Source: Bacteroidota bacterium (lineage in GTDB: Bacteria; Bacteroidota; Bacteroidia; Bacteroidales; F082). From it: a DNA stretch of 53,904 bases. Below, piece by piece: positions 264-26,124 of the stretch. A program made the position numbers and the translations under genes. A model generated the notes under the pieces. That model worked only from the letters and a program-made list of their open reading frames with translations, was not told where the DNA came from and ran no database searches. Location of the stretch: contig QMPA01000001.1 of NCBI GenBank assembly GCA_003650365.1, forward strand, positions 1-53,904. Direction: 5' to 3'. Each line of letters begins with the position of its first letter. Position 1 is the first letter of the stretch.

Positions 264-2435
264 ATGAAAACATTCAAAGAAGAACAAGAAAAATTCAGCC
301 AGAAAGTGGCGCTTTATTTTTTTATTTTGTGCTTGTTTGTGATACCTTTAATGCAGGTAAATAGTCTGATAGACACATCCTTGTATTCAAAATTTACAGT
401 CTTGTCAATCGGATTATTGTTGCTTCTGTTCATCTTTATTTTTGTTCGGAATTATCGGAATCAAATAGAATTGTCAATTGTTAAAGAGACAATTTTCCCG
501 ATATATCTTTTGTTCATATTCATTTCGGGTTTTTCAATATTTAATGCAATCAATGTTTCAGAAGCGTACTATGATTTAATGAAGAATATTTTGTTTTTTA
601 TATTCCTGGTCTTTTCATCGGTATTGCTGATTAATACAAATAAAATATTAAAGCCTATTAGTAAGATTATTGCTGTTTTTACAATCGTTATGACAGCAGT
701 TGGTTTAGTGCAGTTTTTTAGTACTGCTTTACAGCATGATTATTCTATCTACACCGCATATGAAATTACTGGTGTATTTGCACATAAGAATTTGTTTGCT
801 CAAATGTTGTTTTTGGTTTTACCGTTTAACATTTTCGGTATTTATTCTCTCAGTAAACCATGGAAGGCACTTTCCCTTACAAATTATGTGCTGGCCCTAT
901 TTTTAATTGTGGCCCTTATGGCGCGATCGGTTTGGGTTGCAGGGGTTTTTGCTCTGCTTGCAACTGTTTTTTTCTTGATAATGATTGATCGCAATATCGT
1001 TTTGGCCCAAATAAATAAAAACCTGCTTAAGCCAGTTCTTATAACTTTTTTGATCATAATAGTTTCGGTAACGGTTATAAATACAATTAATGGCTTTCAA
1101 ATCAAAGGAAAAACTACTACAGATGAGCAAGTATATGAGGAGATGTTTGGCGAAAAGAGTACAATAAAAACCCATGTAAGTGAAATCCCGCAAGTTGAAT
1201 CAGGTAATGCTTTTAACAGGCTTGTTATTTGGAACAAAACTTTAAGAATGTTTGGGGATTACCCCTTTTTGGGCGTTGGGGGAGGAAATTGGAAAATACA
1301 AATTCCGAACTTTGGTGTTGATAAAGAAATTATTATGCCTGAGAAAAAGAGGCTACAAAGGCCACACAATGATTTTTTATGGGTGCTTTCCGAAAACGGC
1401 TTATTTGGTTTAATTGCCTGGATCGGTATTTTTTTAATCAGTGTTTTTTATTTGCTTAGAATTATTAAAGTTACGAAAACCAACGAAGAAAGGCTTTTCT
1501 ATTCCCTTATGCTGTTCGCGCTTATTGGTTACTCCGTTTTCTCTTTCTTTAGTTTTCCCAGAGAAAGGATAGCACATAATACCTATATACATTTTATACT
1601 GGCAATAATTATTGCAAAGTATTATCAGCTTTTTGGAGTTATTTCTAAGCAAACTTTTTCGGTTAAAAAAATACAACTAATAAACCTGTCTCTAGTACTA
1701 TTATTATTGGCAGCATCGTTTATAGGGATAAAAAGAATAAAAGGTGAAATACATACGAAAAGGGCAATAAGTATGCTGGATATTAAAAAACCAGGGTTAG
1801 TAATTCGCGAAATAGACAAGGCTTATTCCTGGTTTTACAGCATCGATCCCTCTTCAACTCCGCTAATGTGGTATAAAGGATTGGCGATGTTTCATTTGGG
1901 TAAAACTGATATGGCAATTCATAGTTTCCGGCTTGCAGTAAAAAATAATTCCTTTCATAGTAATGTTTACAATAGCCTTGGAATTTGTTATGCCAAAAAG
2001 GGAGATTTTAAAGAGGCCAAAGCGTATTTCATTAAATCTACGCATCTAAAACCATTTTCAAATGAAGCAAATATAAGTTTGGCAAAAATTTATTTAATGG
2101 AAAATAATGAAGATAGGGCGCTTCAAGAGCTTTATAAAGCCGATTCTGATAATAAAAGCATTACAAAAACATATCGAAAATTTATTGTCAAGGACCTTAA
2201 AAGAAGAATAGACAGCCTCAAGAATACTTTTGCAGAAAAGGATATAAAGCTTGCCATCGCTTTTTTTACGCAATCAGAAGATGATGTTTTTAATAATTAT
2301 AGGGTATCTTATAAAAATAATTTACCATATGAAAAACAGATTTTGCACTTTGTATATTGGGGATTGGGAAATTATAAAGGTATGATAAAACCGGCCGACA
2401 GAAAAGCAATTATTAAAAGAGCTAACGAATTATAA
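264..2435 (+). CDS. O-antigen ligase/polymerase-like (Wzy_C-type) polytopic membrane protein with C-terminal TPR domain
   Basis: 723-aa ORF with ATG at 264 and many hydrophobic spans. Carries the Wzy_C-type loop RPHNDFLWVLSENGLFGL. The C-terminal ~230 aa are TPR-like (GLAMFHLGKTDMAIHSFRLAVK, YNSLGICYAKKGDFKEAKAYF). Paralog of 28596-30500. Confidence 0.75.
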   Translation: MKTFKEEQEKFSQKVALYFFILCLFVIPLMQVNSLIDTSLYSKFTVLSIGLLLLLFIFIFVRNYRNQIELSIVKETIFPIYLLFIFISGFSIFNAINVSEAYYDLMKNILFFIFLVFSSVLLINTNKILKPISKIIAVFTIVMTAVGLVQFFSTALQHDYSIYTAYEITGVFAHKNLFAQMLFLVLPFNIFGIYSLSKPWKALSLTNYVLALFLIVALMARSVWVAGVFALLATVFFLIMIDRNIVLAQINKNLLKPVLITFLIIIVSVTVINTINGFQIKGKTTTDEQVYEEMFGEKSTIKTHVSEIPQVESGNAFNRLVIWNKTLRMFGDYPFLGVGGGNWKIQIPNFGVDKEIIMPEKKRLQRPHNDFLWVLSENGLFGLIAWIGIFLISVFYLLRIIKVTKTNEERLFYSLMLFALIGYSVFSFFSFPRERIAHNTYIHFILAIIIAKYYQLFGVISKQTFSVKKIQLINLSLVLLLLAASFIGIKRIKGEIHTKRAISMLDIKKPGLVIREIDKAYSWFYSIDPSSTPLMWYKGLAMFHLGKTDMAIHSFRLAVKNNSFHSNVYNSLGICYAKKGDFKEAKAYFIKSTHLKPFSNEANISLAKIYLMENNEDRALQELYKADSDNKSITKTYRKFIVKDLKRRIDSLKNTFAEKDIKLAIAFFTQSEDDVFNNYRVSYKNNLPYEKQILHFVYWGLGNYKGMIKPADRKAIIKRANEL

Positions 2436-2438
2436 TTT

Positions 2439-3428
2439 ATGTCAACCAGCTTAATAAGTATAATTATGCCTGCCTATAATGCTGAGCGGCATATTCGTCA
2501 AGCTATACAGAGCATATTAGAGCAGTCTTATAAGCATTTTGAATTAATTATTATCAATGATGGTTCAAGCGATAATACGAAAGCAATAATTAAATCGTAT
2601 GGCGACAATAGGATCAGATTTTTTGAAAATGAAAAGAATTCAGGAATTGTCTTCAGCAGGAACAGAGGATTAAAACTGGCAAAGGGCGAGTACATTGGTA
2701 TGTTTGATGCAGATGATATTGCCCATCGGGAAAAATTCAGAATGCAGGTTTCTTTTCTTGAACAGAACAAGGATTTTGGAATGGTAGGCTCTTGGATAAA
2801 ATTTATTGATATGGACGGGAAACCATTGCCTGGAAAATGGAAGTTAATGGCTTCACCCGAAATGATTCCTTCCATTATGTTGTTTAAGAATTATTTTCTG
2901 CAATCGGCCGTGCTTTACAGACAAGCCTGTATTCGAAATTTTTCGTTTAAAGAAGGATTTGATATACTGGAGGACTACCTCATTTGGCTTGAAATCATCA
3001 GGGATTACAAAGTATGGAACCTGCAGAAATATCTGGTAGACTATAGAATTCACAGCGGTGGTATTACGAAAAAGCACAGCAAAGAAAAACTTGAAAAAGA
3101 AGAAAGAGTTTTCAGGATGCAATTGAAGGAGTTGGGAATTAGTGCAACGGAAACTGAATTAGAATCACATTTACTAATTAGGAATGACCAATCAATTTCA
3201 AGTATTCACACGCTCAAATCAATTGAGAAATGGCTATTGAAAATACTCGCTAGTAATGAAGTGCTTGGAGTTTATGACCAAAAAATACTCACAAGGACAG
3301 TCTTTAACCGTTGGCTGAAAGTTTGCTCAAAAGCAAAACACTTGCATTTCAAATTGTTATATCCTCTTTTCACCTCTAAAATATTTTCTATTTTTATAAA
3401 AAGTTTCAGGCCACGCTTTAATAATTAG
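2439..3428 (+). CDS. Family 2 glycosyltransferase (GT-A fold)
   Basis: N-terminus ISIIMPAYNAERHIRQAIQSILEQSY..FELIIINDGSSDNT, followed by the acidic motif MFDADD. Starts 4 nt after the upstream stop. Confidence 0.85.
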   Translation: MSTSLISIIMPAYNAERHIRQAIQSILEQSYKHFELIIINDGSSDNTKAIIKSYGDNRIRFFENEKNSGIVFSRNRGLKLAKGEYIGMFDADDIAHREKFRMQVSFLEQNKDFGMVGSWIKFIDMDGKPLPGKWKLMASPEMIPSIMLFKNYFLQSAVLYRQACIRNFSFKEGFDILEDYLIWLEIIRDYKVWNLQKYLVDYRIHSGGITKKHSKEKLEKEERVFRMQLKELGISATETELESHLLIRNDQSISSIHTLKSIEKWLLKILASNEVLGVYDQKILTRTVFNRWLKVCSKAKHLHFKLLYPLFTSKIFSIFIKSFRPRFNN

Positions 3429-3433
3429 TGTAA

Positions 3434-4321
3434 ATGTTGAAAATGACCGCAAGTGTTTCTATAGTTGCCGCCAATTATAACAATGGTAGATATCTTAAAG
3501 ATTTCATCAACAGCGTCAGCGATTCAAGTGTATTGCCCAAAGAGCTCATAATTATTGACGATGGATCAACTGACGATTCACTAAAAATTCTTGAAAGCTT
3601 TTCCAGGCTTGCATATTTGAAAATCATCAAATTCGAAAAAAACCTTGGATTTTGTGAAGCATTAAATGCAGGAATTGAAATTGCCAGTGGTGATTATATT
3701 ATGCGCGTCGATCCAGATGATATCGTATTAAAAGGCAGGATTAAATCGCAGGTTGAATACCTTGAAAATCACAAAGAAGTTGATGTTGTTGGCAGCAATG
3801 TTATTTATTTTCATGATGATACAGGCAAAGTGCTGATAAGATCAAATTTCCCAATCGATCATTCATCCATCAAAACGAAATATTTAAAAGGCGAACATGG
3901 CGTGCAGCACCCTTCCACAATGATAAGGTCTGCTGTTATGAAACAATACAAATACGTACAGGATAATTTTAAGGCCGAAGATTATGAAATTTTTGCGCGT
4001 ATGATAAAAGACGGGCTTCACTTTGCAAATATTTATGAACCACTTACAAGAATGCGGGTTCATGGCCAAAGTGTTTCGGTTAGTATCCAGTACAGTACCA
4101 TTAAGCTGACATACAAAATCAGGGATGAAATTTTCGGTACATCTACAACTGCACTACAATCATGTTTTTATTATTGGTATATTTTGAACTACAAAAAATT
4201 CCTGATCACAAAGAATGTACTAATGAAACCACTGTATTTAGTGCTGTCAGTACTGTTTTATCCCTCAAAGTTTTTTAAAAGATTATTTGAAGTCAACAAG
4301 CATGAAAGTTTCAAATCTTAA
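3434..4321 (+). CDS. Family 2 glycosyltransferase
   Basis: VSIVAANYNNGRYL..LIIIDDGSTDDS followed by RVDPDD. Typical GT2 N-terminal domain. Confidence 0.85.
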   Translation: MLKMTASVSIVAANYNNGRYLKDFINSVSDSSVLPKELIIIDDGSTDDSLKILESFSRLAYLKIIKFEKNLGFCEALNAGIEIASGDYIMRVDPDDIVLKGRIKSQVEYLENHKEVDVVGSNVIYFHDDTGKVLIRSNFPIDHSSIKTKYLKGEHGVQHPSTMIRSAVMKQYKYVQDNFKAEDYEIFARMIKDGLHFANIYEPLTRMRVHGQSVSVSIQYSTIKLTYKIRDEIFGTSTTALQSCFYYWYILNYKKFLITKNVLMKPLYLVLSVLFYPSKFFKRLFEVNKHESFKS

Positions 4322-5672
4322 TAATCCATTGATTGACTGGGTCACCAAATACGAGTCAAAACTTGTCGATATTTTCTTTTGGCTTTTTATCGCCTCTTTT
4401 CTCATCGACCGTATTATCAATTATTTTATTCATTTTCCATTCTTCGTGGGTTCTGCTTTATTGATGTTTCCATTCTTGTTTTTCATCACCCAGCATAAAA
4501 ACCCTGACAGGAAACGATTGATGATAGCGGTTTTTTCATTTGTGCTTATTACAATTATTAACAGCATTGTTTATTTGTTTGGGGTAAAAAATATATCCGA
4601 CCTATTGTTTATTATCCTTTTCATTACTATTTATTTTTATTATAGAAAAAACATAAACAATCTAAAAACCGCAAACACATATCTTTTTTTTGCATTATCA
4701 CTTTTCCTGTTTTCTTTTACATTTTTCAATATCGATTCTAATTCGATACATAAACACTCATATACTTCAACCCTGAGGTGGATTACTTCTTATGATGAAG
4801 AGCCGGAAAAACTAAAGAAAATAAGGCTAAAGAATGAAAAACTTGAGCTGGCAGAAAAAGGAATGGCAAAAAAAAGACTGGAAGAAAGTGGAGAGATTAC
4901 ATGGAAAAGTAATGAATTGGATATATTGGAAATATTAAGGATTTACCACAATGGTTTGTTCCGGATTCCTCATATAGCCTCCTATTTTTTTGGTTTTCTG
5001 TTTCTGTTTTTTGCCCATCAATATCGAATTAAGAAAAAAATACTTTTTGTGGTTTTAATGGTAATAAGTATTGGTTTGTGTATTTATTCCGGTTCAAGGG
5101 CTATTCTGCTTGCTTTTGTCTTGTCAACAATTATTTTTTTATTCAACAGAAAATACATCCTTTATCTCGCCATGATTTTTGTTGCAATACTGATCTTGAT
5201 CTTTTCAAAGGAATATTTCCTTCAAATAAGCAAGGACACATTTTTCTTCCAATACTTCACATTAATTGAAACAACTCTTGAAAACTTCAGCAGGCTTTCG
5301 CGCTATAGGTTATGGTATTCGTGGTGGACAGAGGTTAGTGAGTTTGGTTTTTGGGAATTTGTTATTGGGAATTCTTTTATGAGTGCCATGTACGCAAACG
5401 CAGTTAACCTTAATTTTAAAGAGTGGTTTCACAACGATTTTCTGAGTATTTTCTATACTTTCGGCATTTGGTGTACACTGCTTTATATCTGGTTTTTTAT
5501 CAAGATTTATCGTGATTACAAAATGTATATCAAACAAAATATTTTCATTTTCATTTTTTATGCTTCAATGATCATTACGGCCTTCGTTAATGGGTTTTAT
5601 TATTATTTTCCTGTTTTTTTGCTTTACCTGTTTTTGTTAATGATTAAAAACGAAAAACAATTGGCTCAATAA
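4302..5672 (+). CDS. Wzy/O-antigen polymerase-like polytopic membrane protein
   Basis: Very hydrophobic ORF with the ligase/polymerase-type loop EWFHNDFLSIFYTFGIW and one charged loop (EEPEKLKKIRLKNEKLELAEKG). The ORF-track start at 4287 is a TTG inside the upstream gene. The first in-frame ATG is at 4302. Confidence 0.65.
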   Translation: MKVSNLNNPLIDWVTKYESKLVDIFFWLFIASFLIDRIINYFIHFPFFVGSALLMFPFLFFITQHKNPDRKRLMIAVFSFVLITIINSIVYLFGVKNISDLLFIILFITIYFYYRKNINNLKTANTYLFFALSLFLFSFTFFNIDSNSIHKHSYTSTLRWITSYDEEPEKLKKIRLKNEKLELAEKGMAKKRLEESGEITWKSNELDILEILRIYHNGLFRIPHIASYFFGFLFLFFAHQYRIKKKILFVVLMVISIGLCIYSGSRAILLAFVLSTIIFLFNRKYILYLAMIFVAILILIFSKEYFLQISKDTFFFQYFTLIETTLENFSRLSRYRLWYSWWTEVSEFGFWEFVIGNSFMSAMYANAVNLNFKEWFHNDFLSIFYTFGIWCTLLYIWFFIKIYRDYKMYIKQNIFIFIFYASMIITAFVNGFYYYFPVFLLYLFLLMIKNEKQLAQ

Positions 5673-5673
5673 A

Positions 5674-6744
5674 ATGAAGATAGGGATTTTAGGTACGCGC
5701 GGTATTCCAAACCGCTACGGTGGTTTTGAGCAATGGGCAGAGCAATTGTCACAAGGCCTTGTTCAAAGAGGGTGTGAGGTAACGGTTTATAATTCACATT
5801 TTCATCCTTATCGGAAAAAGGATTTTTATGGGGTTGAAATTATACGCAAGTGGGATCCTAAAACTATTGGTTTGGCAAGCCAGTTTATTTATGATTTGCT
5901 CTGCATCTTAAGTGCCAGAAAGAAAAATTTTGATACCATTATTCAACTTGGATATACCACGAGTTCGGTCTGGGCATGGCTTTTACCAAAAAAAGCAAAA
6001 GTGCTGTACAATATGGATGGTATTGAATGGAAACGCGAGAAGTACAAAGGAATAGTAAAATCATTTCTAAAATATGCCGAGCAACTTGCTGTAAACAATA
6101 GTGATGTTATAATTGCAGATGCAAAACCAATAAAGCGATACTTTGAAAAAAAGTACGATACAAATGTTGAATATATTGCCTATCCTGCAAAAATATTTGA
6201 TAGCCCAGAAAGTGCTGTTCTTAAAAAGCATAAGCTAAGCCGAAACAATTATAGTTTGCTAATCGCACGTTTTCAGCCTGATAATAATCTCGAAATGATA
6301 ATAAAAGGGACCGTTGCGTCCAAATCAACTTTGCCATTACTAATTGTGGGAGATTACGATAACAAATATGGCCGCCATCTGTTGAAGAAGTATAAAGATA
6401 AAAGGATTGTTTTTTTAGGTAAGATTTTTGACAAAAAAGAGCTCGACAACCTGCGCTATTTTTCATCCATTTATTTTCATGGTCACAGTGCAGGGGGAAC
6501 AAATCCATCGCTATTAGAAGCAATGGCAACCTCCTGTATTATATGTGCGCACAACAATGAATTTAACAAGTCTGTTCTGGATAATGATGCCTGGTATTTT
6601 ACGCATGAGGATGATATTTCTGCCTTGTTGAATAGTGAAAATGACAGAGGCGACAAAGCCAATTGGATTGAGAATAATCTCGATAAATTACGCAATAATT
6701 ACAATCTGGATGTTATTATAAATGACTACCAAAAATTATTTTGA
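5674..6744 (+). CDS. GT4-type glycosyltransferase with DUF1972-type N-terminal domain
   Basis: N-terminus MKIGILGTRGIPNRYGGFEQWAEQLS. C-terminal GT-B motif FHGHSAGGTNPSLLEAMA. Starts 2 nt after the upstream stop. Confidence 0.8.
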   Translation: MKIGILGTRGIPNRYGGFEQWAEQLSQGLVQRGCEVTVYNSHFHPYRKKDFYGVEIIRKWDPKTIGLASQFIYDLLCILSARKKNFDTIIQLGYTTSSVWAWLLPKKAKVLYNMDGIEWKREKYKGIVKSFLKYAEQLAVNNSDVIIADAKPIKRYFEKKYDTNVEYIAYPAKIFDSPESAVLKKHKLSRNNYSLLIARFQPDNNLEMIIKGTVASKSTLPLLIVGDYDNKYGRHLLKKYKDKRIVFLGKIFDKKELDNLRYFSSIYFHGHSAGGTNPSLLEAMATSCIICAHNNEFNKSVLDNDAWYFTHEDDISALLNSENDRGDKANWIENNLDKLRNNYNLDVIINDYQKLF

Positions 6745-6808
6745 AATTGCGATTAGGTTTTCGATGAAAGAAATACTACAATAAAAATGAAACCAAAAAA
6801 TAAGCAGA

Positions 6809-8185
6809 ATGAAATACTCAAAGTATATATCACTTATTTCGGCTATTGGTGATTTATTAATTCTAAATATCAGTTTCAATTTTGCATTTTGTTATTTGAA
6901 AGGGTTTGAGAAGGCTTGCTGTAGTACAATTTCAATTGTCTTTTTTATTTTTATTAATCTCGCCTGGGTTGTTTCGGCAAATATCTTCAAAGCACACCGG
7001 TTCGACCGCCAAAGTTATAAGAAAGCAATTCTGTTTACTTACATTAAAACAGTTGTTTTCTTCTTCTTTCTTTTTTTACTTTTTTTCCAGATTTTTACTT
7101 TTGATTATTATCAGCGAGATGAGATTAAAACGCTGTTTTTTGTCTTTTTTACATCCCTGATAGCTTGGCAATTTTTTCTTTATTTTATTTCCCTTTTCTA
7201 CCGAAAATCTGGCTATAATTACCGCAATGTTGTTATTGTTGGATACAGTGATAAAGCAACAGAGCTAAAAGATTATTTTACTGATAATTTATGGGCAGGA
7301 TACCGTTTTAAGGGTTTTTTCACGCATAACAAATCAGATAAAAAAGATGTTTCAGGAACTTACAGTGACCTTGAAAATTTCATAACAAGCAATAGTGTTG
7401 ATGAGATATATATTATGATAAATGATATTCATAAAAGTGTTTATAAAACCATTTCCTCAATAATAAGCAAGCAGGCAGTTAAAATAAGGCTTGTCCCCGA
7501 TTTATCCGATTTTTCATATATGGGTCTTAAATTAGTTGATTACGACTTAGTTCCTGTTATGAAAGTTCAGGAAGGGCCATTGAGTTTCTGGTACAACAGT
7601 TTGGTGAAACGCCTGATAGATATTGTCATTTCAATACTCGTCATTGTATTGGTATTGTCGTGGCTTATCCCGCTGCTTGCTATTGTAGATTTGTTTGGCC
7701 ACAGAGAGGGCCTGTTTTTCATTCAGCAGCGATCAGGCTTAGATGACCAGCCATTTGGCCTTATTAAATTCAGGACAATGCGGAAAAACCGAGATGCTGA
7801 CATTAAAGGTGCTACCGAAGATGATGAAAGAATTACATGGCTTGGGAGTATTTTGCGAAAAACAAGTATCGACGAGCTGCCCCAGTTTTTTAATGTATTA
7901 GGTGGGAAAATGTCAGTAATCGGCCCCCGTCCGCACATGCTTTTGCATACCGAAGAATACAAAGTCCTTGTCAATAAATTTATGATCAGACACTCAGTAA
8001 AACCTGGTATTACCGGTTATGCACAGGTTAGGGGTTGTAGGGGCGAAATTAAAACGACAAAAGATATGAAAGAAAGGATTAAACTTGACATTTCCTATAT
8101 TGAAAATTGGTCGATGTGGTTCGATATTAAAATTGTTTTTCTCACTTTTATTAGTTTTTTCAAAGGTGATGAAAAAGCATATTGA
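6809..8185 (+). CDS. Polyprenyl-phosphate hexose-1-phosphate transferase (WcaJ/WbaP-like priming sugar transferase)
   Basis: N-terminal TM bundle plus a Bac_transf C-terminal domain: KRLIDIVISILVIVLVLSWLIPLLAIV, LIKFRTM, DELPQFFNVLGGKMSVIGPRP, KPGITGYAQV. Confidence 0.9.
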   Translation: MKYSKYISLISAIGDLLILNISFNFAFCYLKGFEKACCSTISIVFFIFINLAWVVSANIFKAHRFDRQSYKKAILFTYIKTVVFFFFLFLLFFQIFTFDYYQRDEIKTLFFVFFTSLIAWQFFLYFISLFYRKSGYNYRNVVIVGYSDKATELKDYFTDNLWAGYRFKGFFTHNKSDKKDVSGTYSDLENFITSNSVDEIYIMINDIHKSVYKTISSIISKQAVKIRLVPDLSDFSYMGLKLVDYDLVPVMKVQEGPLSFWYNSLVKRLIDIVISILVIVLVLSWLIPLLAIVDLFGHREGLFFIQQRSGLDDQPFGLIKFRTMRKNRDADIKGATEDDERITWLGSILRKTSIDELPQFFNVLGGKMSVIGPRPHMLLHTEEYKVLVNKFMIRHSVKPGITGYAQVRGCRGEIKTTKDMKERIKLDISYIENWSMWFDIKIVFLTFISFFKGDEKAY

Positions 8186-8196
8186 TAAAGATAAAA

Positions 8197-18947: not shown

Positions 18948-20321
18948 ATGAAAAACACATTCCTTACTTTTATTATCCTGCTTATCTTGAGTACAAGTAT
19001 GAACGCACAATGGTACGAACTGGTAACACCAACAATAAACTTTGATATTAAATCTTCAAGTTTTATCGACCTGGAAATTAACCTTGACGGGGAACCCTAT
19101 TTGCTGTACGATTGTGAAGTACCCAACGGCAACGATATTGACTATAAATTGTTTGTTCAGAAATATGATGAGATTAATGATGGGTGGAGTTTAGTTGGTA
19201 GCAATAACGTAAATGAACTGAATGCTTTTCAAAACAATATGGCAATTGACTCAGAGGGCACTGTTTACGTTGCATTTCTTAAAGTAGGAGCGGGAATTTC
19301 CACTTGTACTGTTAAAGAATTTGATGGGACAGAATGGGTGACTATCGGAGAATGGGATGTTGGCGTATTAACGGAAGTTACTATGTATTGCAACAACCAG
19401 GACGATCTTTATGTATCCCATTCCGATAGTGATTATCCCGGTCAGGTTGTTAAAAGATACCTTGGTACGGTCAATAACTGGGAAATATTGGGGGATGCTC
19501 CTTTCCTCACTGAGAGCCAATGCCTCGGACCTGCAATTACAACTGATAACGATGGAAATATACTGGTTTCTTACGGTACACCTGGTGGGCTTAGTGTAAA
19601 AAAATTTAATGGTTCTACCTGGGAATATGTTGGATCCGGTACAATAGGCGATGAACCTCTTTATCCCACTTCAATAACAACAGGCAGCGATGATGTAATT
19701 TATACAACCACAACCGATTTCTGGTCATCGGCAAGCACCGTACATCGTTATCAAAACAATGCATGGCAAAACCAACTTATATGTTATGGCGGCGGTTACA
19801 TGCCTTTTGCAAAGTACAACAATGAGGTTTATATGGGACATTATGTTGCTGATAATGGTTTAAGGCCGAGAGTAAAAAAAGTGGACAATTCCGGTAACTG
19901 GATCAACCTTCCTGAACAGCCCGGCGAATATTTTACATCCCCTTCCATTCCCACTACATATTTTGATATTGAAACAGACAATCATGGAAATCTTTACATG
20001 GCTTTGTTGAAAGGGGATAACTTTAACCACCATGTTTCGGTAATTAAGTTGGATATTGTAACGGGGATTAAAGCACCACAAAAAGAGGTTTTTACAATTT
20101 ATCCAAATCCAACAACCGGAATTATAAAACTGACAGGTCCAGATAGTTATTGGGATGAAAACCTATTCGGAATAGAAATCACCGACATCACAGGTATAAC
20201 AATTTGCACATGGAGGCATGTTCCCTCACAAATAGATTTATCAGGTTTAAAAAAAGGGATTTACTTTGTGAGGGTAAACACTTCAGAAAACAGCTATATC
20301 GAAAAATTAATTATTCGATAG
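18948..20321 (+). CDS. Secreted protein with T9SS type-A C-terminal sorting domain
   Basis: Signal peptide MKNTFLTFIILLILSTSMNAQ. C-terminal FTIYPNPTTGIIKL...GIYFVRVNTSENSYIEKLIIR is a typical Por/T9SS CTD. Paralog of 27182-28564. Confidence 0.8.
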   Translation: MKNTFLTFIILLILSTSMNAQWYELVTPTINFDIKSSSFIDLEINLDGEPYLLYDCEVPNGNDIDYKLFVQKYDEINDGWSLVGSNNVNELNAFQNNMAIDSEGTVYVAFLKVGAGISTCTVKEFDGTEWVTIGEWDVGVLTEVTMYCNNQDDLYVSHSDSDYPGQVVKRYLGTVNNWEILGDAPFLTESQCLGPAITTDNDGNILVSYGTPGGLSVKKFNGSTWEYVGSGTIGDEPLYPTSITTGSDDVIYTTTTDFWSSASTVHRYQNNAWQNQLICYGGGYMPFAKYNNEVYMGHYVADNGLRPRVKKVDNSGNWINLPEQPGEYFTSPSIPTTYFDIETDNHGNLYMALLKGDNFNHHVSVIKLDIVTGIKAPQKEVFTIYPNPTTGIIKLTGPDSYWDENLFGIEITDITGITICTWRHVPSQIDLSGLKKGIYFVRVNTSENSYIEKLIIR

Positions 20322-20331
20322 GTAATTTTCA

Positions 20332-20364
20332 AGTCAGGGCTTGACTTCAAGCCAAACCCTGACT
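20332..20364 (+). other. Intergenic hairpin (8-bp stem AGTCAGGG/CCCTGACT, 17-nt loop)
   Basis: Perfect inverted repeat between the stop at 20321 and the ATG at 20377. No T-run follows it, so it is not a classical terminator. Confidence 0.35.
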
Positions 20365-20376
20365 ACTAAAGAATTT

Positions 20377-21243
20377 ATGATGGTCAGAACAATAGCAGTA
20401 TCAACAGTAATCGGGTGCAAAAACTTATGCAGTTATTGCCCACAGGATAAGGTTGTGAAAGCGTATAGTAAAAGAAGTAAGGTCAGGACAATGAGCTTTG
20501 AAACTTTTGCAAAATGTATTGATAAATTACCAAAAGATACCACAATTAATTTTGCTGGCTTTTCTGAACCTTGTCTGAATCCGGAATACACAAAAATGAT
20601 TTTGTATGCAAATAAGAAAGGTCATAAAATCAGATTGTTGACAACAACTATCGGTATGAAATTAGCTGATGTTAATTTAATTGAGAATGTTCCTTTTTTA
20701 CGATTTCTTATTCATCTGCCCGATAATCAAAATAAGACAAAAATATTAGTAGATGATGATTTTATTAAAATCATAGAAAGACTGATTGACAGTAAAATAG
20801 AAGTAAATTGGAAATTCCATCAATCACCTAACGGAAAAGAAGACGTGCATCCAAAACTAAAACCATTATTGATAGAGGCGGGCATTTATAATTCATTGGT
20901 AAGGGCAGGTTTAAAAACCCGCGCAGGGAATGTTGAAATTGAAGGAAAAGCGTTTGTAGAAAAAATCAAAGGAAAAATTAGAGGTTGTCATTTATTATAT
21001 ACAAACCAGTTGTTACCCAATGGAGATGTTTTTATCTGCTGCATGGACTGGGAATTGAAATATTTTTTGGGTAATTTATTACACTCAGATTATGACTCCC
21101 TCTTTCAAAGCAATACATTCAAAGAAATTCTGAAAGGTTTTAAAGATGACAAATCCGAAATTTTATGCAGGTATTGTGAGCTTTGTGAAATACAGGAATC
21201 TTGGTGGGAGAAGATAAAGAATGTTAGGTCTTGGAGCGCCTAA
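20377..21243 (+). CDS. Small radical SAM protein with SPASM/twitch-like Cys-rich C-terminus
   Basis: CxxxCxxC in VIGCKNLCSYCPQ. C-terminal cysteines in GDVFICCMDWE and CRYCELC. The ORF-track start at 20341 is TTG. The first ATG is at 20377. Paralog of the split gene at 24517-25436. Confidence 0.8.
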   Translation: MMVRTIAVSTVIGCKNLCSYCPQDKVVKAYSKRSKVRTMSFETFAKCIDKLPKDTTINFAGFSEPCLNPEYTKMILYANKKGHKIRLLTTTIGMKLADVNLIENVPFLRFLIHLPDNQNKTKILVDDDFIKIIERLIDSKIEVNWKFHQSPNGKEDVHPKLKPLLIEAGIYNSLVRAGLKTRAGNVEIEGKAFVEKIKGKIRGCHLLYTNQLLPNGDVFICCMDWELKYFLGNLLHSDYDSLFQSNTFKEILKGFKDDKSEILCRYCELCEIQESWWEKIKNVRSWSA

Positions 21244-22409
21244 TTCAACGCCCTGTTTATTAGGTAGAATTTTTTAATCATTCGTTCAGCAACCTCTTGG
21301 ATTACAATGTCAGGTTGTTCCTTTATTATAATATTCGTATCCATTTTTGGGTCCCATATTAAGACATTTGAGCCAAAAGTTTCTGGTATTAGCGTTTGTA
21401 GTGCAGTAAAATATGAATCCCGAAATACTAAAACCTTCAATTCCCCTTTCCTGTTTCTAAAGCGGTATTCATAATTATTTGGGCTTGACGTGTTGTAGCC
21501 TGCTGGTACTTTGAGTTGCTTCTTCATTATTTTTGCATTTGACACAACAGGATATGCTGAAATTTTCGGAAAGGGTGATCTTCGGTTCAGAAATTTGGCC
21601 AAATCACCAGAGCCATTAAAAACACTGTCAAAAAATACTTCACGGTGGCTCAGTCCTGAAATGAAAGGGAAATCTTGCCCGATACTATCCATCAGTTGAA
21701 GATATGCTATCCATGCGCCATGTCCGTTCCAGTGAGTATCTTCTTTGTAGTATAGCTGTTTGGATTTGCCAGAGATGAGAGCTTCTCGGGAATCGACAAA
21801 AGGAATTTGAGTTAAGGCCAATGCTTCAGAAAGCATGTCATAAGTTGTAGGCTGATCTGGTTTGTCAAAGGGAAGATATTCGGAATAAATATCATGTTTG
21901 CCAGGAACAAGCATAAAATAATACTTGATGCCGCGCTGATTGCACCAGTTGTAATGACTTGTGATTGTACGTGTTATATTTTTTATTTGTTTCTTATTAA
22001 AGCGTTTTATGCCAAGACTTATTGAGAGGGCATTCTCAAAATCGTCACCTAAAAACAGCCATCCAATACGGCCTTTAATTACTTTATTTGGAAATGGATT
22101 TGTATTTAGGATATCTTCCTTAATGAATTGATACATTTTTAACAATTCCTTTTTTAACCCTATTTTGCGAATGTACCATTCATACAATACTTTAATGTTA
22201 TAGGTGGCATCCAGATAAACACCTTTGATTTTTCCTTTAACACCTTGCCCGTTGTAGATGTGTTTAAAGTTTAATACTGGGGGTTTGATAGGTTTTTTGT
22301 AACCAATTAATGTAGGCGCAAACGACCTGACAACCATATAACTAGTGGGAAGAAGGAATAACAAAGAAATGACGAATGTGAAAATTATATTTGCAATATA
22401 TTTCGGCAT
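21240..22409 (-). CDS. AlgX/AlgJ-like (SGNH-type) polysaccharide O-acetyltransferase, membrane anchored
   Basis: N-terminal TM anchor. YYKEDTHWNGHGAWIAY contains the DTHW-type motif of the AlgJ/AlgX family. Lies 3 nt downstream of the MBOAT gene. Its stop overlaps the convergent stop of 20377-21243. Confidence 0.7.
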   Translation of the reverse strand: MPKYIANIIFTFVISLLFLLPTSYMVVRSFAPTLIGYKKPIKPPVLNFKHIYNGQGVKGKIKGVYLDATYNIKVLYEWYIRKIGLKKELLKMYQFIKEDILNTNPFPNKVIKGRIGWLFLGDDFENALSISLGIKRFNKKQIKNITRTITSHYNWCNQRGIKYYFMLVPGKHDIYSEYLPFDKPDQPTTYDMLSEALALTQIPFVDSREALISGKSKQLYYKEDTHWNGHGAWIAYLQLMDSIGQDFPFISGLSHREVFFDSVFNGSGDLAKFLNRRSPFPKISAYPVVSNAKIMKKQLKVPAGYNTSSPNNYEYRFRNRKGELKVLVFRDSYFTALQTLIPETFGSNVLIWDPKMDTNIIIKEQPDIVIQEVAERMIKKFYLINRALN

Positions 22410-22411
22410 GA

Positions 22412-23851
22412 TTAAAATCTAAAGTAAATAAAAGGGTTATAGGCATCTGCCGAAAGATAGGAGACTGAAGCAATAAATAAGGCTGAATAGAAAATAATTT
22501 TCAAAATATTAATAGAAACAAAACTAAAAATGTTTCGCTCTTTTATTCTTGTCAGCCGGTTTTCGAGTAACGGATATACAGGCATACAGAGTATAATGGC
22601 TAATATGAAGAGCATCATAGTTTCGGTGTCAAAATGAAAATAGCTAATAAAGGAAACCATGGCTTGATCACCAGGTGAAAAGGAAAACATATAGTAATAG
22701 TATTTACCGGCATGGGCCAGGTCAGGAGATCGGAAAAGGACAAAAGAGAGTACCCAGGCCAGCATGGTATAAAAATGCTGAAGTGGAAGCCATGACGATT
22801 TTAGGATTTTGGAAAACCCAAGACGCTCAATAATAATTAAAGCTCCATTAAACAAACCCCAAATCACGAAATTCCAGCTTGCTCCATGCCAAAGTCCGGT
22901 AACAGCAAATACCACTACAAGGTTAAAATAGACCCTCGGTGTCGATCTTCTGTTGCCACCCAATGGAATATATAAATAATCCCTAAACCAGGTAGAAAGT
23001 GAGATATGCCACCGTCTCCACATTTCCCTGATTGATCTGGAAATATACGGGTAATTGAAATTTTCGAGAAACCTGAAGCCCAACATCCGCCCCAGGCCGA
23101 TCGCCATATCTGAATATCCCGAAAAATCAAAATACAATTGTAATACATAAGCAATAATACCGATCCACAAAATGCCTGGCGATAAATCAGCAGGAGATAC
23201 CATAAACACAGTATCAGCAAGTTCGGCAAAGGAATTGGCAATAAGCATCTTTTTTGCCAGCCCGATAATAAAACGTTGTAGCCCCAGGGTAAAATTTTCC
23301 AGGCTTATATTTTTCTTCTTCAACTGGCTGGCTATGTCGGCATAGCGTACTATGGGGCCTGCAACCAGTTGAGGGAACATCGTTACAAAGGCAGCGTAAT
23401 CAATAATGTTCCTGCTGGCTTTTACCCTACCCTTATAAACATCAATTGTGTACGACATAGTTTGAAAGGTGTAAAAACTGATGCCGATCGGAAGGATGAT
23501 TGTTGGAATATTAGCAAAGGACGGATGGTTAATCCCAAAAAAATTAAGGATAGCCTGGAAGTTTTCGAATGCAAAATTGAAGTATTTAAAAAAGCCTAGA
23601 AACGAAAGGTTCGTGAACACAGAAAGGAATAGGCCTAGTTTTCTATAGCCTTTTTCGATAAGATGACTATAGTAATAATCGGCCAGAGTGGTAACGATAA
23701 GTACAATTACGATCTCTTTTTCGCCCCATGTATAGAAAAAAAGGCTTGCCAACAGAAGAAAAAAGTTTTTTGCCCGCGAAGGCAATAGAAAATACAGGCC
23801 AAATACTAGTGGAAGAAAAAGAAAAAGAAAAATGACACTGCTAAATAGCAT
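22412..23851 (-). CDS. MBOAT family O-acyltransferase (AlgI/DltB-like)
   Basis: 479 aa and polytopic. FSGYSDMAIGLGRMLGF, NFNYPY, REMWRRWHISLSTWFRDYLYIPLGG (conserved His region). Confidence 0.9.
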   Translation of the reverse strand: MLFSSVIFLFLFLPLVFGLYFLLPSRAKNFFLLLASLFFYTWGEKEIVIVLIVTTLADYYYSHLIEKGYRKLGLFLSVFTNLSFLGFFKYFNFAFENFQAILNFFGINHPSFANIPTIILPIGISFYTFQTMSYTIDVYKGRVKASRNIIDYAAFVTMFPQLVAGPIVRYADIASQLKKKNISLENFTLGLQRFIIGLAKKMLIANSFAELADTVFMVSPADLSPGILWIGIIAYVLQLYFDFSGYSDMAIGLGRMLGFRFLENFNYPYISRSIREMWRRWHISLSTWFRDYLYIPLGGNRRSTPRVYFNLVVVFAVTGLWHGASWNFVIWGLFNGALIIIERLGFSKILKSSWLPLQHFYTMLAWVLSFVLFRSPDLAHAGKYYYYMFSFSPGDQAMVSFISYFHFDTETMMLFILAIILCMPVYPLLENRLTRIKERNIFSFVSINILKIIFYSALFIASVSYLSADAYNPFIYFRF

Positions 23852-23898
23852 GAATTTAATATTTAGATACTGAGCTTTGTAAAATCATAAAACTTTTT

Positions 23899-24513
23899 TC
23901 AGGAAATAGAGAACGTATTAAACATTTCAATGAAAGAGCTTAGTTTTTTCTTAAGTCTATTTTTAATCACCTCAATTTTTGACCGTTGTTTGTTTTCATG
24001 TGGTAGCGGAATATCGGGGCATTCAAAACCCAGAAACGAACTTAACTTCTCCCAGCCATCACCGTTCTCCCAACACATTGTCAATAATTTTTCAGGTTTG
24101 TTTTTGAAATAATCAGTCACATCTTTTATGTGTTTCTGATAATAATCTAGATGATGCTGTTTACGATCGTGCGGCATTGGGTATCCGTAAATGTATTTTC
24201 TGTAATCCGTTGGACCGGTATAATCCGCATGCCTGCAAAGGCTTTCAAACCAGGCTTCTGGAGTTTTTCTTATTGTTAAAATAAACTTACTGTCCGGGAA
24301 AAATTTATCAACTTCTTTGTAAATTAGTGGCCAGGGCCAATCTTCAAAACTGTCGAATTCTTCAATTCGATCAAAAATAGGATCAAATTCCTGTTTCTTG
24401 TAATTTTCGAAAGAAATACGGTCTAAACTGATGTGATTAAATCCAAAATATTTTAAACACGCTCCCAGTGTGGTTGTTCCTGTTCTATTTAATCCTATTC
24501 CGAATACTTTCAT
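23899..24513 (-). CDS. Sulfotransferase (Sulfotransfer_4-like)
   Basis: MKVFGIGLNRTGTTTLGACL and ILTIRKTPEAWFESL. Paralog of 25436-25966. Confidence 0.75.
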   Translation of the reverse strand: MKVFGIGLNRTGTTTLGACLKYFGFNHISLDRISFENYKKQEFDPIFDRIEEFDSFEDWPWPLIYKEVDKFFPDSKFILTIRKTPEAWFESLCRHADYTGPTDYRKYIYGYPMPHDRKQHHLDYYQKHIKDVTDYFKNKPEKLLTMCWENGDGWEKLSSFLGFECPDIPLPHENKQRSKIEVIKNRLKKKLSSFIEMFNTFSIS

Positions 24514-24516
24514 TCA

Positions 24517-25436
24517 TCAAAAGATTTTCTCTGCTATAGTAGCAATTGAATTCTTATTTCGGACATTAATCAAGCCTTTTTCCCAGGCAAATTCATTGGA
24601 TTTCATAAGAATGGATTTTACCTTTCTGGCAACCTGCTTTCCAAATGATAATGTTTCATCTTGAAATCCTGAAAAAATATAGCACTTTTTACAAAGATCA
24701 AACTCACGTCTTCCTCCGGGTTTTGTAACCTTATCAATTATTCCTCTATGCTTATCTGAACCCCAGATTTCAGCAATTGATTTATTAAACACATTGCCCA
24801 GCCCAAACGTACATTCATCATCTTGGCAACATAACGAAACTTCTCCATCATATCTGATTAGCAAAGCATTTAATTGCATAGTACATGCCTGATCCATTAT
24901 TCTGGGATCTTTATACTTTTTATCATACACTTTTGAGCCCTGTCGAATATTTGTGTATTCAAGAGGCAGTGAAAATGCAATTTTTGTTTTTTTGAACTGG
25001 CTTTCCAGAAAGCAATTTCTTTTTGTTTGCCTTTGTAAGTTGAATAATCATATAGTCCAATTGTAAATTCATCAACCAGGCCATCTAATTGTTTGCATAA
25101 GTCCGGATTAGTTTTTAAAATATCTCCATTGGTATGATCTACAACCAATAGACCTTTTGAACTAGCATACTTCACGAAGTCAAGATAGCGTGCGTCAACC
25201 AGGGGTTCCGAAAGTCGGTGAAAACGAATTTTACCCCGAAAACCCGCACTAGTCACTTCATCAATTATTGCCTTTACTTTTTCAGATGACATTTGTTTTC
25301 TAACCAGTTTCCCATCTTTATCTTTCCGGATACCTGATCGGTTATAATACCGCGGGCAAAATTCACAATCACGGTTGCAAATCGAGTTAATTTCGATCTC
25401 TATTATTTTAAACAACTCAAAGCTTTTCGTTTTCAT
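24517..25436 (-). pseudogene. Radical SAM/SPASM-like gene split by a 1-nt frameshift in an A7 (plus-strand T7) run
   Basis: The upstream ORF (25436-24897) has INSICNRDCEFCPR. The downstream ORF (24930-24517) has the Cys-rich tail SLCCQDDE..CKKC. Both frames are open across 24897-25020. One extra A in the run at 24987-24993 would fuse them (..FWKASSKK|TKIAFSLPLEYTNIRQGSKVYDKKY..) into a protein of ~310 aa, like the paralog at 20377. Confidence 0.7.
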
Positions 25437-25966
25437 TAATAAATTCCTTTATTAATATGTGGGAAATTCTTTTTTGGTATTTGTTTTCCCAGAAACGGGC
25501 AAATCTTTTCCCATCCTTCTCCGGTGGTCAGATCGATTAGCAGTAAATCGTTTGGCCTGTTTTTGAAATACTCTTTTACATCAGCATTATGCTTCTTGTA
25601 TACCCTGAGATAAAGTTCTTCATTCCCAGAAGGATACCCAATACCATAAATCCATTTTCGCATATCTGTACTTTCATTTCCAAAAAAATTCACAACACTT
25701 TTTATCCACTTTTCATCATCCCTAATTGTAAGTATAAACTTACTGCCTGGAAATTTCTTATCTAGTGTTTTGTACAATAATGGCCAGGGGTTATCTTGAA
25801 ATGCGTCATGCTCTTTTACAACTCTAGAAATAGCTTTATACTTTTTTCGTTTTATCGGTTCCAGTAAATCTTTTCGATAACCCGTGACTTTATACCCCAA
25901 CATTTCAAAGGAACTTTTTAAAGTTTTCGTGCCGGTTTTATGAAATCCTATTCCAAATATTTTCAT
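25436..25966 (-). CDS. Sulfotransferase (Sulfotransfer_4-like)
   Basis: MKIFGIGFHKTGTKTL and ILTIRDDEKWIKSV. The ATG at 25966 is preferred over the ORF-track start at 26023. The stop overlaps the radical SAM start (TAATG). Confidence 0.75.
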   Translation of the reverse strand: MKIFGIGFHKTGTKTLKSSFEMLGYKVTGYRKDLLEPIKRKKYKAISRVVKEHDAFQDNPWPLLYKTLDKKFPGSKFILTIRDDEKWIKSVVNFFGNESTDMRKWIYGIGYPSGNEELYLRVYKKHNADVKEYFKNRPNDLLLIDLTTGEGWEKICPFLGKQIPKKNFPHINKGIY

Positions 25967-26124
25967 GTATTTTAGAAGATATTTATTAACACATATTCCG
26001 TACAAATGTACCAAATAGGACAAATGTAATAATCATTAAAAACTAGTTCAGGTTTTAGTTCTATTTTTGGTTAATTAATAGAAGTCCCCTTAAATACGTT
26101 TTGTACATTTTAGTATTTCAATTC

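Follow-up and report, generated by a model that had tools for sequence, protein, structure and literature searches.

Bacteroidota are known mainly as degraders of sulfated polymers. Sulfated glycoconjugates have been detected chemically in microbial mats and in granular sludge, where the bacterial producers and pathways are largely unknown (PMC10483923), and a survey of metagenome-assembled genomes (MAGs) from mats found the PF13469 sulfotransferase in no Bacteroidetes genome (PMC9723792). Two described systems are relevant to the locus reported here. The synechan xss cluster of Synechocystis sp. PCC 6803 is a Wzx/Wzy-type cluster for a sulfated exopolysaccharide (EPS), with 8 glycosyltransferases (GTs) and 2 sulfotransferases (STs) (PMC8205485). 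In lasso-peptide clusters of Firmicutes, the precursor's C-terminal Ser receives a phosphate through an HPr-kinase homolog, and a nucleotidyltransferase adds hexoses to this phosphate (PMC8498205, PMC7533575). In this study, we analysed a metagenomic contig of an uncultured Bacteroidales bacterium (QMPA01000001.1, 53,904 nucleotides; the whole of this stretch is hereafter called the window). Its first 43 kb (positions 264–42986) can be read as a composite glycan island that most likely makes one or more sulfated, O-acylated surface glycans, a reading to which we assign a probability of roughly 65%. The island consists of three joined modules with separate histories, A (264–15314), B (17327–30500) and C (31174–42986), and not of a single polysaccharide locus as proposed in an initial annotation of the same DNA.

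Open reading frames (ORFs) of the window of at least 100 amino acids (aa) were scanned against Pfam with the curated cut-offs, and about 43 ORFs were considered real. Nine ST domains were found, all above cut-off (28.3 bits against a cut-off of 27 for the lowest, 119.5 bits for the highest) and all at the positions given by the initial annotation, although the interval that it proposed for the locus, 264–26023, encloses six of them and omits the three others. Module A carries ST1 (10835–11683, Sulfotransfer_3/1, 60.8 bits, motifs HRSGSS and YRNPVDVINS, predicted cytoplasmic) and ST2, which is the C-terminal half (aa 322–549, Sulfotransfer_3/1, 47.3 bits) of a 586-aa protein (13554–15314). Module B carries ST3 (17327–17926, Sulfotransfer_2, 49 bits, motifs NKTGGVS and VRNPWDKVVS), ST4 (17889–18731, Sulfotransfer_3/1, 69.7 bits), ST5 (23899–24513, Sulfotransfer_4, 97.2 bits, motifs NRTGTT and IRKTPEAWFES) and ST6 (25436–26023, likely start 25966, Sulfotransfer_4, 119.5 bits), the last two being 42% identical. 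The likely start of ST4, 17931, is the position equivalent to the gene start called on L001, a contig of the European Nucleotide Archive (ENA) that is identical to the window over the stretch compared. Module C carries three Stf0-like paralogs, 34–39% identical to one another: ST7 (38759–39493, 36.7 bits), ST8 (39506–40222, 28.3 bits) and ST9 (40206–40961, alternative start 40251, 37.8 bits), each with a Sulfotransfer_3 match (cut-off 27) and a weak Stf0 match. ST5 and ST6 are encoded on the minus strand and the seven others on the plus strand.

These proteins have the sequence features of enzymes using 3'-phosphoadenosine 5'-phosphosulfate (PAPS): the PAPS-binding motifs, that is the 5'-phosphosulfate-binding (5'-PSB) loop and the R-x7-S 3'-phosphate-binding (3'-PB) motif, are kept in all nine, with an atypical loop (GGSGTR) in one of them, ST4. 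As none has a transmembrane segment or a signal peptide, the nine STs are predicted to be soluble cytoplasmic enzymes, as expected of PAPS users. A BLAST comparison sorts them into five or six groups without mutual similarity, in agreement with the at least four families anticipated by the initial annotation. Sequence searches of the PDB with the Stf0-like STs, the Sulfotransfer_2 protein and ST1 returned nothing, or matches to tyrosylprotein sulfotransferases restricted to the PSB loop. The density is unusual: nine STs are present in 53.9 kb, compared with 32 ST ORFs in 1.32 Mb of related loci. Because these related loci hold at most three each, and the syntenic locus L007 described below only one, the clustering of STs in the window exceeds what would be expected by chance.

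The 586-aa protein bearing ST2 links sulfation to sugar transfer within one polypeptide. An AlphaFold2 (AF2) model based on a 44-sequence alignment had a pLDDT of 89.1, and Foldseek matched the N-terminal ~300 aa to glycogenin, the UGGT catalytic domain, XXYLT1 and GlyE (E~1e-8, TMt 0.55–0.64). This half has a DxD motif (LDSDI, aa 96–100), and PF01501 is recognised on three homologs that are 47–48% identical (P0130, P0132 and P0133). The window's own protein gave no Pfam GT8 match at E<=0.01, and a PDB sequence search with its GT8-like half gave no informative match. Given the model, the Foldseek matches, the DxD motif and the PF01501 homologs, we conclude that 13554–15314 encodes a GT8-fold GT-A glycosyltransferase domain fused to a sulfotransferase (hereafter GT8-ST). 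The family comprises 519 homologs, and the best 120 of these 519 are mostly full-length; members include proteins of Beggiatoa alba B18LD, Thiomargarita and Methylolobus. In the B. alba B18LD locus (L169, 10001–15973), GT8-ST and Sulfotransfer_2 genes are followed by genes for a HAD-UbiA prenyltransferase, a FAD_binding_4 protein and a short-chain dehydrogenase, a trio that recalls the makers of decaprenyl-phospho-arabinose-type donors. Judged from sequence, the GT8-ST fusion is the most direct tie of sulfation to a carbohydrate acceptor in the island.

The genes surrounding ST1 and GT8-ST form a Wzx/Wzy-type line. All the genes of module A are on the plus strand and tightly spaced, and the two STs are embedded among a priming glycosyltransferase (PGT), a Wzx flippase, a Wzy-like protein and seven GT domains. 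The order is as follows: a Wzy_C (O-antigen ligase-like) membrane protein with C-terminal tetratricopeptide repeats (TPR) (264–2435; Wzy_C 66.1 bits, 13 hydrophobic segments), two GT2 genes (2439–3428 and 3434–4321; Glycos_transf_2 118.9 and 102.8 bits, the second with a 74% identical ortholog in L007), a Wzy-like polymerase candidate (4287–5672; 10 hydrophobic segments, 63% identical ortholog in L007), a GT4 gene of the DUF1972 type (5674–6744), a WcaJ-like polyprenyl-phosphate hexose-1-phosphate transferase, which is the PGT (6809–8185; Bac_transf 202 bits), the Wzx-type flippase (8182–9735; Polysacc_synt 89 bits, 13 hydrophobic segments), a second GT4 gene (9807–10835; Glycos_transf_1 98.2 bits), ST1, two further GT2 genes (11685–12593 and 12598–13449) and GT8-ST. 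The PGT scored 397.7 bits with TIGR03023 (cut-off 410.75) and 366.6 bits with TIGR03025 (cut-off 295.55). The Wzy-like protein reached 28 bits with Wzy_C (cut-off 31.7) and 20.8 bits with TIGR04370 (cut-off 40). Over the whole island, 12 GT domains were counted (8 GT2, 2 GT4, 1 GT8-fold and 1 Rhamno_transf). The PGT, the flippase, the 12 GT domains and an O-acetylation pair, all announced by the initial annotation, are present, as seen by Pfam or, for the GT8 fold, by structure; of the three Wzy/ligase-like proteins that it named, those at 264–2435 and 28596–30500 are recognised by Wzy_C and the one at 4287–5672 less firmly.

The xss cluster is the closest characterised precedent of module A. 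Both are of the Wzx/Wzy type and combine a priming transferase, many GTs and soluble PAPS-type STs of different subfamilies, and in both, following the model proposed for synechan (PMC8205485), sulfation would occur on the cytoplasmic lipid-linked unit. The island differs from xss by its 9 STs and 12 GT domains (2 STs and 8 GTs in xss), by the GT8-ST fusion, the radical-SAM/SPASM partners, the O-acylation pair and the appended PqqD/kinase::GT2/ABC cassette, by the absence of a polysaccharide copolymerase (PCP) gene and of XssQ/R/S-type regulators, in place of which a TPR-AraC regulator is found, and by its host phylum, Bacteroidota instead of Cyanobacteria.

Module B is an accessory block that comprises four STs, two small radical-SAM/SPASM genes, an MBOAT/AlgX pair, a Peptidase_S51 lipoprotein, two cargo proteins of the type IX secretion system (T9SS) and a Wzy_C-TPR protein. 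On the plus strand, a regulator gene is followed by ST3, ST4, the T9SS cargo gene T9prop-1 and a gene for a small radical-SAM/SPASM enzyme (20341–21243; Pfam match, CxxxCxxC present). The minus-strand operon consists of ST6, a second radical-SAM/SPASM gene (24517–25436), ST5, an MBOAT gene (22412–23851; 114.2 bits) and an adjoining gene for an AlgX-like SGNH protein (21240–22409; ALGX 71.1 bits). Beyond this operon lie the S51 lipoprotein, the second T9SS cargo gene (T9prop-2) and the second Wzy_C-TPR gene. The association of an MBOAT protein with an AlgX-like SGNH protein is shared with the AlgI/AlgJ/AlgX O-acetylation system of alginate; unlike that system, the island has no alginate synthesis genes, and its O-acylation pair is putative. 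The radical-SAM/SPASM gene at 24517–25436 is split by a frameshift into two ORFs, with the break near 24930–25011. An intact 290-aa ortholog in L168 aligns over both frames with 48–55% identity, and the frameshift could be due to gene decay, an assembly error or recoding. In NCBIfam, the module B radical-SAM proteins gave weak matches to models of the twitch domain and of DesII. BtrN and DesII are examples of small SPASM/twitch radical-SAM enzymes whose substrates are sugar-like.

Combinations of the same gene types are found elsewhere. L167 has the order ST-GT2-GT2-ST-ST-GT8ST, which packs four ST domains into 6.3 kb; in L168, Wzy_C and GT2 genes precede GT8ST-rSAM/SPASM-ST, the radical-SAM (rSAM) gene being of the same family as that of the window; and L174 reads ST-GT8ST-Wzx-GT4-rSAM/SPASM-ST-ST-WsaF-GT2-ST-rSAM/SPASM, followed by a T9SS protein, a stretch of 11 kb that holds five ST domains and two radical-SAM genes. 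Because the association of ST, GT and small radical-SAM/SPASM genes recurs in related loci, it is a recurring design rather than a chance feature of the contig studied here. These loci also bear on the idea that some of the STs, especially the Sulfotransfer_4 pair (ST5 and ST6) and the Sulfotransfer_2 protein (ST3), sulfate small molecules or lipids and not a polysaccharide. The PDB relatives of ST6 are 9kf1, SgdX2 and Schistosoma sulfotransferases; the solved relatives of the pair, SgdX2 and the Schistosoma oxamniquine sulfotransferases, are small-molecule enzymes, and the pairing of STs with radical-SAM enzymes is typical of natural-product pathways. However, metagenomic homologs of the Sulfotransfer_4 proteins often adjoin Sulfotransfer_2, Sulfotransfer_3, GT8ST, GT2 or Wzx genes (and radical-SAM genes twice), the same radical-SAM family lies between GT8ST and ST in L168, rSAM/SPASM genes stand amid Wzx, GT and ST genes in L174, and the Sulfotransfer_4 operon of the window ends in MBOAT and AlgX-like genes, with no polyketide synthase, non-ribosomal peptide synthetase or lipid-synthesis genes present. 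We therefore regard action on small molecules as rather improbable and favour a glycan as the acceptor of the module B STs.

The composite nature of the island was revealed by the comparison with L007 (MAG D100SM.bin.7), which shares synteny with the outer portions of the window; orthologs have 57–91% protein identity, and two L007 genes match window paralogs only (41–46%). L007 starts with GT2, Wzy-like, GT4, PGT and GT2 genes, continues with PqqD, NTP_transf_5, ABC, GT2, kinase::GT2::GT2 and GT2 genes, one Stf0-like ST and an S51 gene, and ends with genes for a DEAD helicase, a metallo-beta-lactamase-fold (MBL) protein and a 1114-aa protein. The PGT/Wzy block thus directly abuts the module C cassette, in the same orientation and with one ST, which contradicts the single polysaccharide locus of the initial annotation. 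Eight of the nine window STs are absent from L007: the six located in 8182–30500 and two extra Stf0-like copies. The high ST load is a lineage-specific accretion on a shared scaffold. In L007 the S51 gene (13947–14891) overlaps the end of the cassette's ST gene. The genome comparison that the initial annotation had called for thus yielded both a shared scaffold with one ST and ST-rich loci (L167, L168 and L174).

The same comparison addresses the concern that the island arose as a chimera during assembly or is decaying and silent, as the metagenomic source and the frameshifted radical-SAM gene might suggest. The order GT8ST, AraC, ST, ST and T9SS protein, which spans the junction between modules A and B, recurs in an independent NCBI assembly (L002), and the outer gene order and right flank recur in L007; from this recurrence and synteny we conclude that the window is not chimeric at its key junctions. 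In addition, the GC content is uniform along the window (0.33–0.40), and the nine STs and all the GTs are intact with their motifs kept. A chimeric or decaying origin is thus very improbable, and we retain the view that the island is a genuine glycan locus. The nearest genomic relatives of the window are Bacteroidales MAGs and, together with the T9SS sorting domains, they bear out the Bacteroidota origin proposed from the sequence.

A gene for a membrane-anchored regulator with TPR and an AraC-type helix-turn-helix domain (15442–17118, plus strand; identified from Pfam matches and transmembrane segments) separates modules A and B. ST3 and ST4 sit between this gene and T9prop-1 (18948–20321, plus strand), which encodes a secreted beta-propeller-like protein with a T9SS C-terminal sorting domain (Por_Secre_tail). 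T9prop-2 (27182–28564, plus strand) is 58% identical to T9prop-1. The family is small, with ~20 close homologs in 5.8 billion protein clusters. A 31-nucleotide element, beginning TTGTACGGATATACCTAT..., is present on the plus strand at 17121–17151, just past the regulator gene and upstream of the ST operon, and at 18851–18881, upstream of T9prop-1; it extends an exact 18-nucleotide repeat for which 0.04 matches would be expected by chance, and a weaker copy is found at about 27087. Related TTTGTAC...TACAT elements also follow the orthologous regulator gene in L170 (2955–3000) and L172 (9885–9930). The element is a candidate shared regulatory site, which may be an operator of the TPR-AraC regulator or a duplicated promoter, and its distribution suggests a shared regulation of the STs and T9prop rather than a substrate relationship. 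We had considered the T9prop proteins as dedicated substrates of the sulfation system and rejected this proposal: in L170 and L172 the homologs are located directly downstream of the orthologous regulator, among T9SS cargo and without ST or GT genes. A scan for sigma-70 promoters and terminators over 13000–32000 gave counts equal to those of shuffled sequences, with models that do not cover Bacteroidota promoters, and Rfam and tRNA scans of the window gave no matches.

The T9SS proteins and the ligase-like proteins raise the question of the end product. Bacteroidota anchor T9SS cargo to anionic lipopolysaccharide (LPS), and Wzy_C-family enzymes include protein O-oligosaccharyltransferases. The glycans may thus not be free capsule or EPS, the Wzy_C-TPR proteins transferring them onto lipid A-core or onto secreted proteins such as T9prop; this possibility is compatible with sulfated-glycan synthesis and would alter its end product to an anionic anchor or an O-glycan of T9SS cargo. 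The island has two Wzy_C-TPR ligase-like genes (the second at 28596–30500, minus strand, Wzy_C 76.8 bits, 32% identical to the first) and the window no Wza/Wzc gene, two T9SS-sorted proteins are encoded in the island, and T9SS cargo genes adjoin related ST or cassette loci. On the other hand, the position of the T9prop homologs in L170 and L172, beside the regulator and other cargo and away from any ST or GT gene, implies that the linkage may be incidental, the role of the Wzy_C-TPR proteins as ligases or oligosaccharyltransferases is putative, and Wza/Wzc could be encoded elsewhere in the genome, since only 263 bp of the contig precede the first gene. Taken together, we see transfer onto LPS or cargo as a plausible variant but an unlikely one, and a sulfated surface glycan as the preferred product.

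Module C is of a different kind. It is ordered as PqqD-like, NTP_transf_5, ABC exporter, GT2, kinase::GT2::GT2, GT2, three STs, Rhamno_transf (minus strand) and S51. The PqqD-like protein (31174–31665) scored 38.1 bits with PqqD and 45.6 bits with lasso_PqqD_Bac (cut-off 80). It is followed by an NTP_transf_5 nucleotidyltransferase-family protein (31722–32876; 133.1 bits), for which a PDB sequence search gave no informative match, a fused TMD-NBD ABC exporter of MsbA/PglK/McjD architecture (32873–34579; Pfam and NCBIfam), a GT2 (34603–35331), a P-loop kinase-like domain of the phosphoenolpyruvate carboxykinase (PEPCK)/HPr kinase (HPrK) fold (aa 1–355) joined to two GT2 domains (35294–37891; Pfam, AF2 and Foldseek) and another GT2 (38062–38754), all on the plus strand. 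Behind ST7–ST9 lie a Rhamno_transf-family glycosyltransferase (40945–42027, minus strand, 58.8 bits), also found after the cassette in L005, L010, L011 and L013, and the second S51 lipoprotein (42156–42986, plus strand, Pfam), which forms the right edge of the island. It is 43% identical to the S51 lipoprotein of module B (26101–26952, plus strand; cyanophycinase-like, with a Pfam match and a lipobox). We know of no role of Peptidase_S51 in glycan synthesis.

Two proteins of the cassette were characterised further. The Walker A motif of the kinase-like domain matches the family consensus GKGGVGKSTTAL, of which the GKGG.GKS core is invariant or nearly so in family alignments. The AF2 model (pLDDT 88.1) was matched by Foldseek to ATP-PEPCK over its whole length (E 6e-11, TMq 0.53–0.57), and the profile matches HPrK structures over the P-loop, the PEPCK superfamily containing HPr kinase as well. 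Weak HprK_rel_A/B matches and similarity to the ScmC family were also found. The domain has 782 word-indexed homologs, and the 120 of these that were listed are 53–75% identical, the named ones coming from several phyla; 4013 representative clusters were retrieved at E<=1e-3, 1262 of them at E<=1e-30, and the more distant relatives are mostly stand-alone proteins of ~350 aa. In the PqqD-like protein, the acidic C-terminal tail (31546–31635) is near-invariant (NKY[ST]DMQDLLLLDPIHDVDExGWP in a 68-homolog alignment) across at least eight phyla (L003–L086) and could be a docking helix or an acceptor segment. That the C-terminal Ser of the PqqD-like protein is a target of the lasso-kinase type was dismissed, as the last residues are not conserved and some homologs have I, A, E or D in place of the S/T of the motif.

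We then asked how widespread the cassette is. Scanning of 185,579 species genomes identified 97 relatives, of which 80 loci were kept. The conserved core comprises PqqD, NTP_transf_5 and kinase::GT2 with one to five additional GT2 genes and, in some loci, an ABC exporter, and is found in Bacteroidota, Balneolales, Nitrospirota, Syntrophales, Gemmatimonadota, Lentisphaerota, Verrucomicrobiota and Acidobacteriota; cultured carriers are Methylovulum psychrotolerans, Sphingomonas formosensis and Rhodohalobacter sp. 614A. Stf0-like STs (1–3 copies) are accessory and, with one exception, restricted to loci of the Bacteroidota/Balneolales type; orthologous ST runs follow the cassette in L005, L006, L009, L011, L016 and others. 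The cassette is flanked by Wzy_C-TPR genes in four other Bacteroidota loci (L045, L051, L066 and L075). In Smithella-type loci it is accompanied by a radical-SAM/SPASM gene and a membrane protein of ~460 aa with 8–10 hydrophobic segments and no Pfam match; this protein, which may be a GT-C-like transferase, was observed beside the cassette in 10 loci (for example L004 14322–15716 and L031 14780–16156) from deltaproteobacteria (Smithella, Syntrophales), Lentisphaerae and one Nitrospiraceae. In seven Balneolales-type loci a soluble protein of 456–466 aa without Pfam match is encoded downstream of the cassette (L003 15052–16452; L023 7581–8951). No description of the cassette was found in the literature searched.

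The closest characterised analogues of module C are lasso-peptide tailoring sets, those of paeninodin (PadeK) and pseudomycoidin (PsmK/PsmN), with which it shares a PqqD-type protein, a kinase of the HPr-kinase superfamily, a nucleotidyltransferase and an ABC exporter; as in module C, GT2 and sulfotransferase genes are sometimes present in these sets (PMC8498205, PMC7533575). Because of these analogues, the acceptor of module C could be a glycan, a lipid or a peptide. If it were a peptide, module C, with its three Stf0-like STs, would be a system akin to those of ribosomally synthesised peptides modified after translation (RiPPs) that makes an exported modified peptide: the PqqD-like protein would serve as a RiPP recognition element (RRE) that binds a peptide or protein, and a Ser would be phosphorylated by the kinase-like domain; a glycan linked through phosphate, as in pseudomycoidin, would be assembled by NTP_transf_5 and the GT2 enzymes and sulfated by the STs, and the peptide would leave the cell through the ABC transporter. 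Besides the co-occurrence of these families in Firmicutes lasso clusters, this scheme is consistent with (i) lasso_PqqD_Bac being the best NCBIfam match of the PqqD-like protein, (ii) the HprK_rel_A/B and ScmC matches of the kinase-like domain and (iii) the extra radical-SAM/SPASM gene of the Smithella-type cassettes. However, every NCBIfam score is far under its cut-off. No precursor-peptide gene was evident among the small ORFs of 30500–31174, and no conserved small ORF was found upstream of PqqD in 69 loci, where only fragments shared by close relatives appeared, one of them resembling the translation of a tRNA gene. Unlike lasso clusters, the window has neither a lasso cyclase (Asn-synthase-like) nor a B2 peptidase, and among 84 related loci (L003–L086) an ORF with the Asn-synthase motif SGG[LIVM]DS was found near one, with no B2 peptidase seen. 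Module C also differs from the lasso sets by the fusion of the kinase-like domain to GT2, by the unique invariant tail of its PqqD-like protein and by its contact with the PGT/Wzy block in L007, next to which the Wzy_C-TPR genes flanking other cassettes may be cited; its 2–6 GT2 domains per cassette fit an oligosaccharide better than a decoration of one or two hexoses. A peptide product is thus unlikely, and we prefer for module C a glycan product that may be phosphate-linked, the cassette itself being perhaps evolutionarily tied to lasso-peptide tailoring.

The pairing of an HPrK-like with a PqqD-like protein is also a feature of Haft's HPr-rel-A (TIGR04352/TIGR04353) and SynChlorMet (Scm; ScmC/ScmD) systems, which, like the cassette, have radical-SAM/SPASM companions in some lineages. 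Module C scored 28.8 bits with HprK_rel_A (cut-off 200) and 23.7 bits with ScmD (cut-off 100), and no TIGR04353 match was listed for it. With scores far below the family cut-offs, its assignment to the HPr-rel-A, Scm or lasso families was discarded, and the cassette is a separate, unnamed subfamily beside HPr-rel-A and Scm. The three STs of module C resemble the mycobacterial Stf0 trehalose 2-sulfotransferase by weak matches to Sulphotransf (PF09037) and NF047724 and by a short soluble architecture; they differ from it in that one of the three reaches the Pfam cut-off (24.7 against 22 bits) and that no trehalose or sulfolipid context is present. The weak similarity nevertheless points to a carbohydrate ST family.

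From these elements the following pathway can be proposed. [quoted passage not shown] Before flipping by Wzx, sulfate from PAPS would be added to the lipid-linked unit by ST1 and by the ST half of the fusion, the latter protein adding a sugar and then sulfating that or a neighbouring residue. After Wzx-mediated flipping, the Wzy-like protein would polymerise the units and a Wzy_C-TPR protein would ligate the product to its final acceptor. Module B would provide lineage-specific tailoring: four more cytoplasmic STs, a probable radical modification of a sugar (an oxidation or epimerisation is suggested) by the radical-SAM/SPASM enzymes, which are co-conserved with STs elsewhere, and periplasmic O-acylation by the MBOAT/AlgX-like pair. 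In module C, the kinase-like::GT2, NTP_transf_5 and PqqD-like proteins would probably create or recognise a phosphorylated primer, which the GT2 enzymes would lengthen and the three Stf0-like STs sulfate, before the ABC exporter moves the product over the inner membrane. Module C and the PGT/Wzy block would probably feed one pathway: because the cassette directly follows this block in L007, our preferred product is a lipid-linked glycan entering the same surface polymer or ligase route. The Bacteroidales lineage of the window may sulfate the module C glycan up to three times and couple it to the Wzy/ligase route.

Several points weigh against this scheme. The evidence is the sequence of a metagenomic contig from an uncultured organism, and one of the module B radical-SAM genes is frameshifted. 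The window shows no complete pathway, as it lacks Wza/Wzc genes and genes for making PAPS and nucleotide sugars; in line with the initial annotation, these families and sulfatases had no Pfam match among its ORFs of at least 100 aa. A peptide acceptor is conceivable because the module C core resembles lasso tailoring, RRE-type PqqD included, small molecules are the substrates of the solved relatives of ST5 and ST6, and the Wzy-like call for 4287–5672 is the weaker for a Wzy_C score below the Pfam cut-off. The sulfated, acetylated surface glycan envisaged by the initial annotation is thus supported for modules A and B, by the STs in a co-oriented array, the GT-ST fusion, the recurrent combinations and the MBOAT/AlgX pair, but is not supported in that form for the Sulfotransfer_4 pair and for the module C STs (38759–40961), which belong to a conserved cassette with lasso-tailoring analogues (PMC8498205, PMC7533575). 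Its gene inventory, otherwise accurate, left out the PqqD-like, NTP_transf_5, kinase-like, ABC, radical-SAM/SPASM, S51, T9SS-cargo and AraC genes.

To the right of the island, housekeeping genes (DEAD helicase, MBL protein, 1114-aa protein) follow in the order common to L007, and both ends of the window are non-coding. The 1114-aa protein (45270–48614), just beyond the island, has TolB-like beta-propeller repeats and a counterpart of 83% identity in L007. At 52264–52381, between a 133-aa ORF and the fructose-bisphosphate aldolase gene, at least six 16-nucleotide units (ACTCTAAACTTTAGGC-like) are repeated in tandem.

Taken together, these data show an island with an unusual number of STs that is a well-corroborated candidate for the synthesis of sulfated glycans. 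It differs from xss in the number and diversity of the STs, the GT8-ST fusion, the radical-SAM partners and the host phylum. The distinct candidate glycan STs, including the GT-ST fusion, could be used for in vitro tests or for the engineering of sulfated polymers. Sulfation is moreover tied here to two uncharacterised and widespread gene sets, the ST-associated radical-SAM/SPASM family and the PqqD/NTP_transf_5/kinase::GT2 cassette, and these are the parts of the island that could prove new; that the cassette is an undescribed multi-phylum glycoconjugate pathway and, jointly, that the ST-linked radical-SAM/SPASM enzymes perform a new sugar modification of sulfated glycans is a doubtful proposition at present. 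For the biology of the group, the island and its relatives name candidate producers of sulfated glycans among uncultured Bacteroidales.

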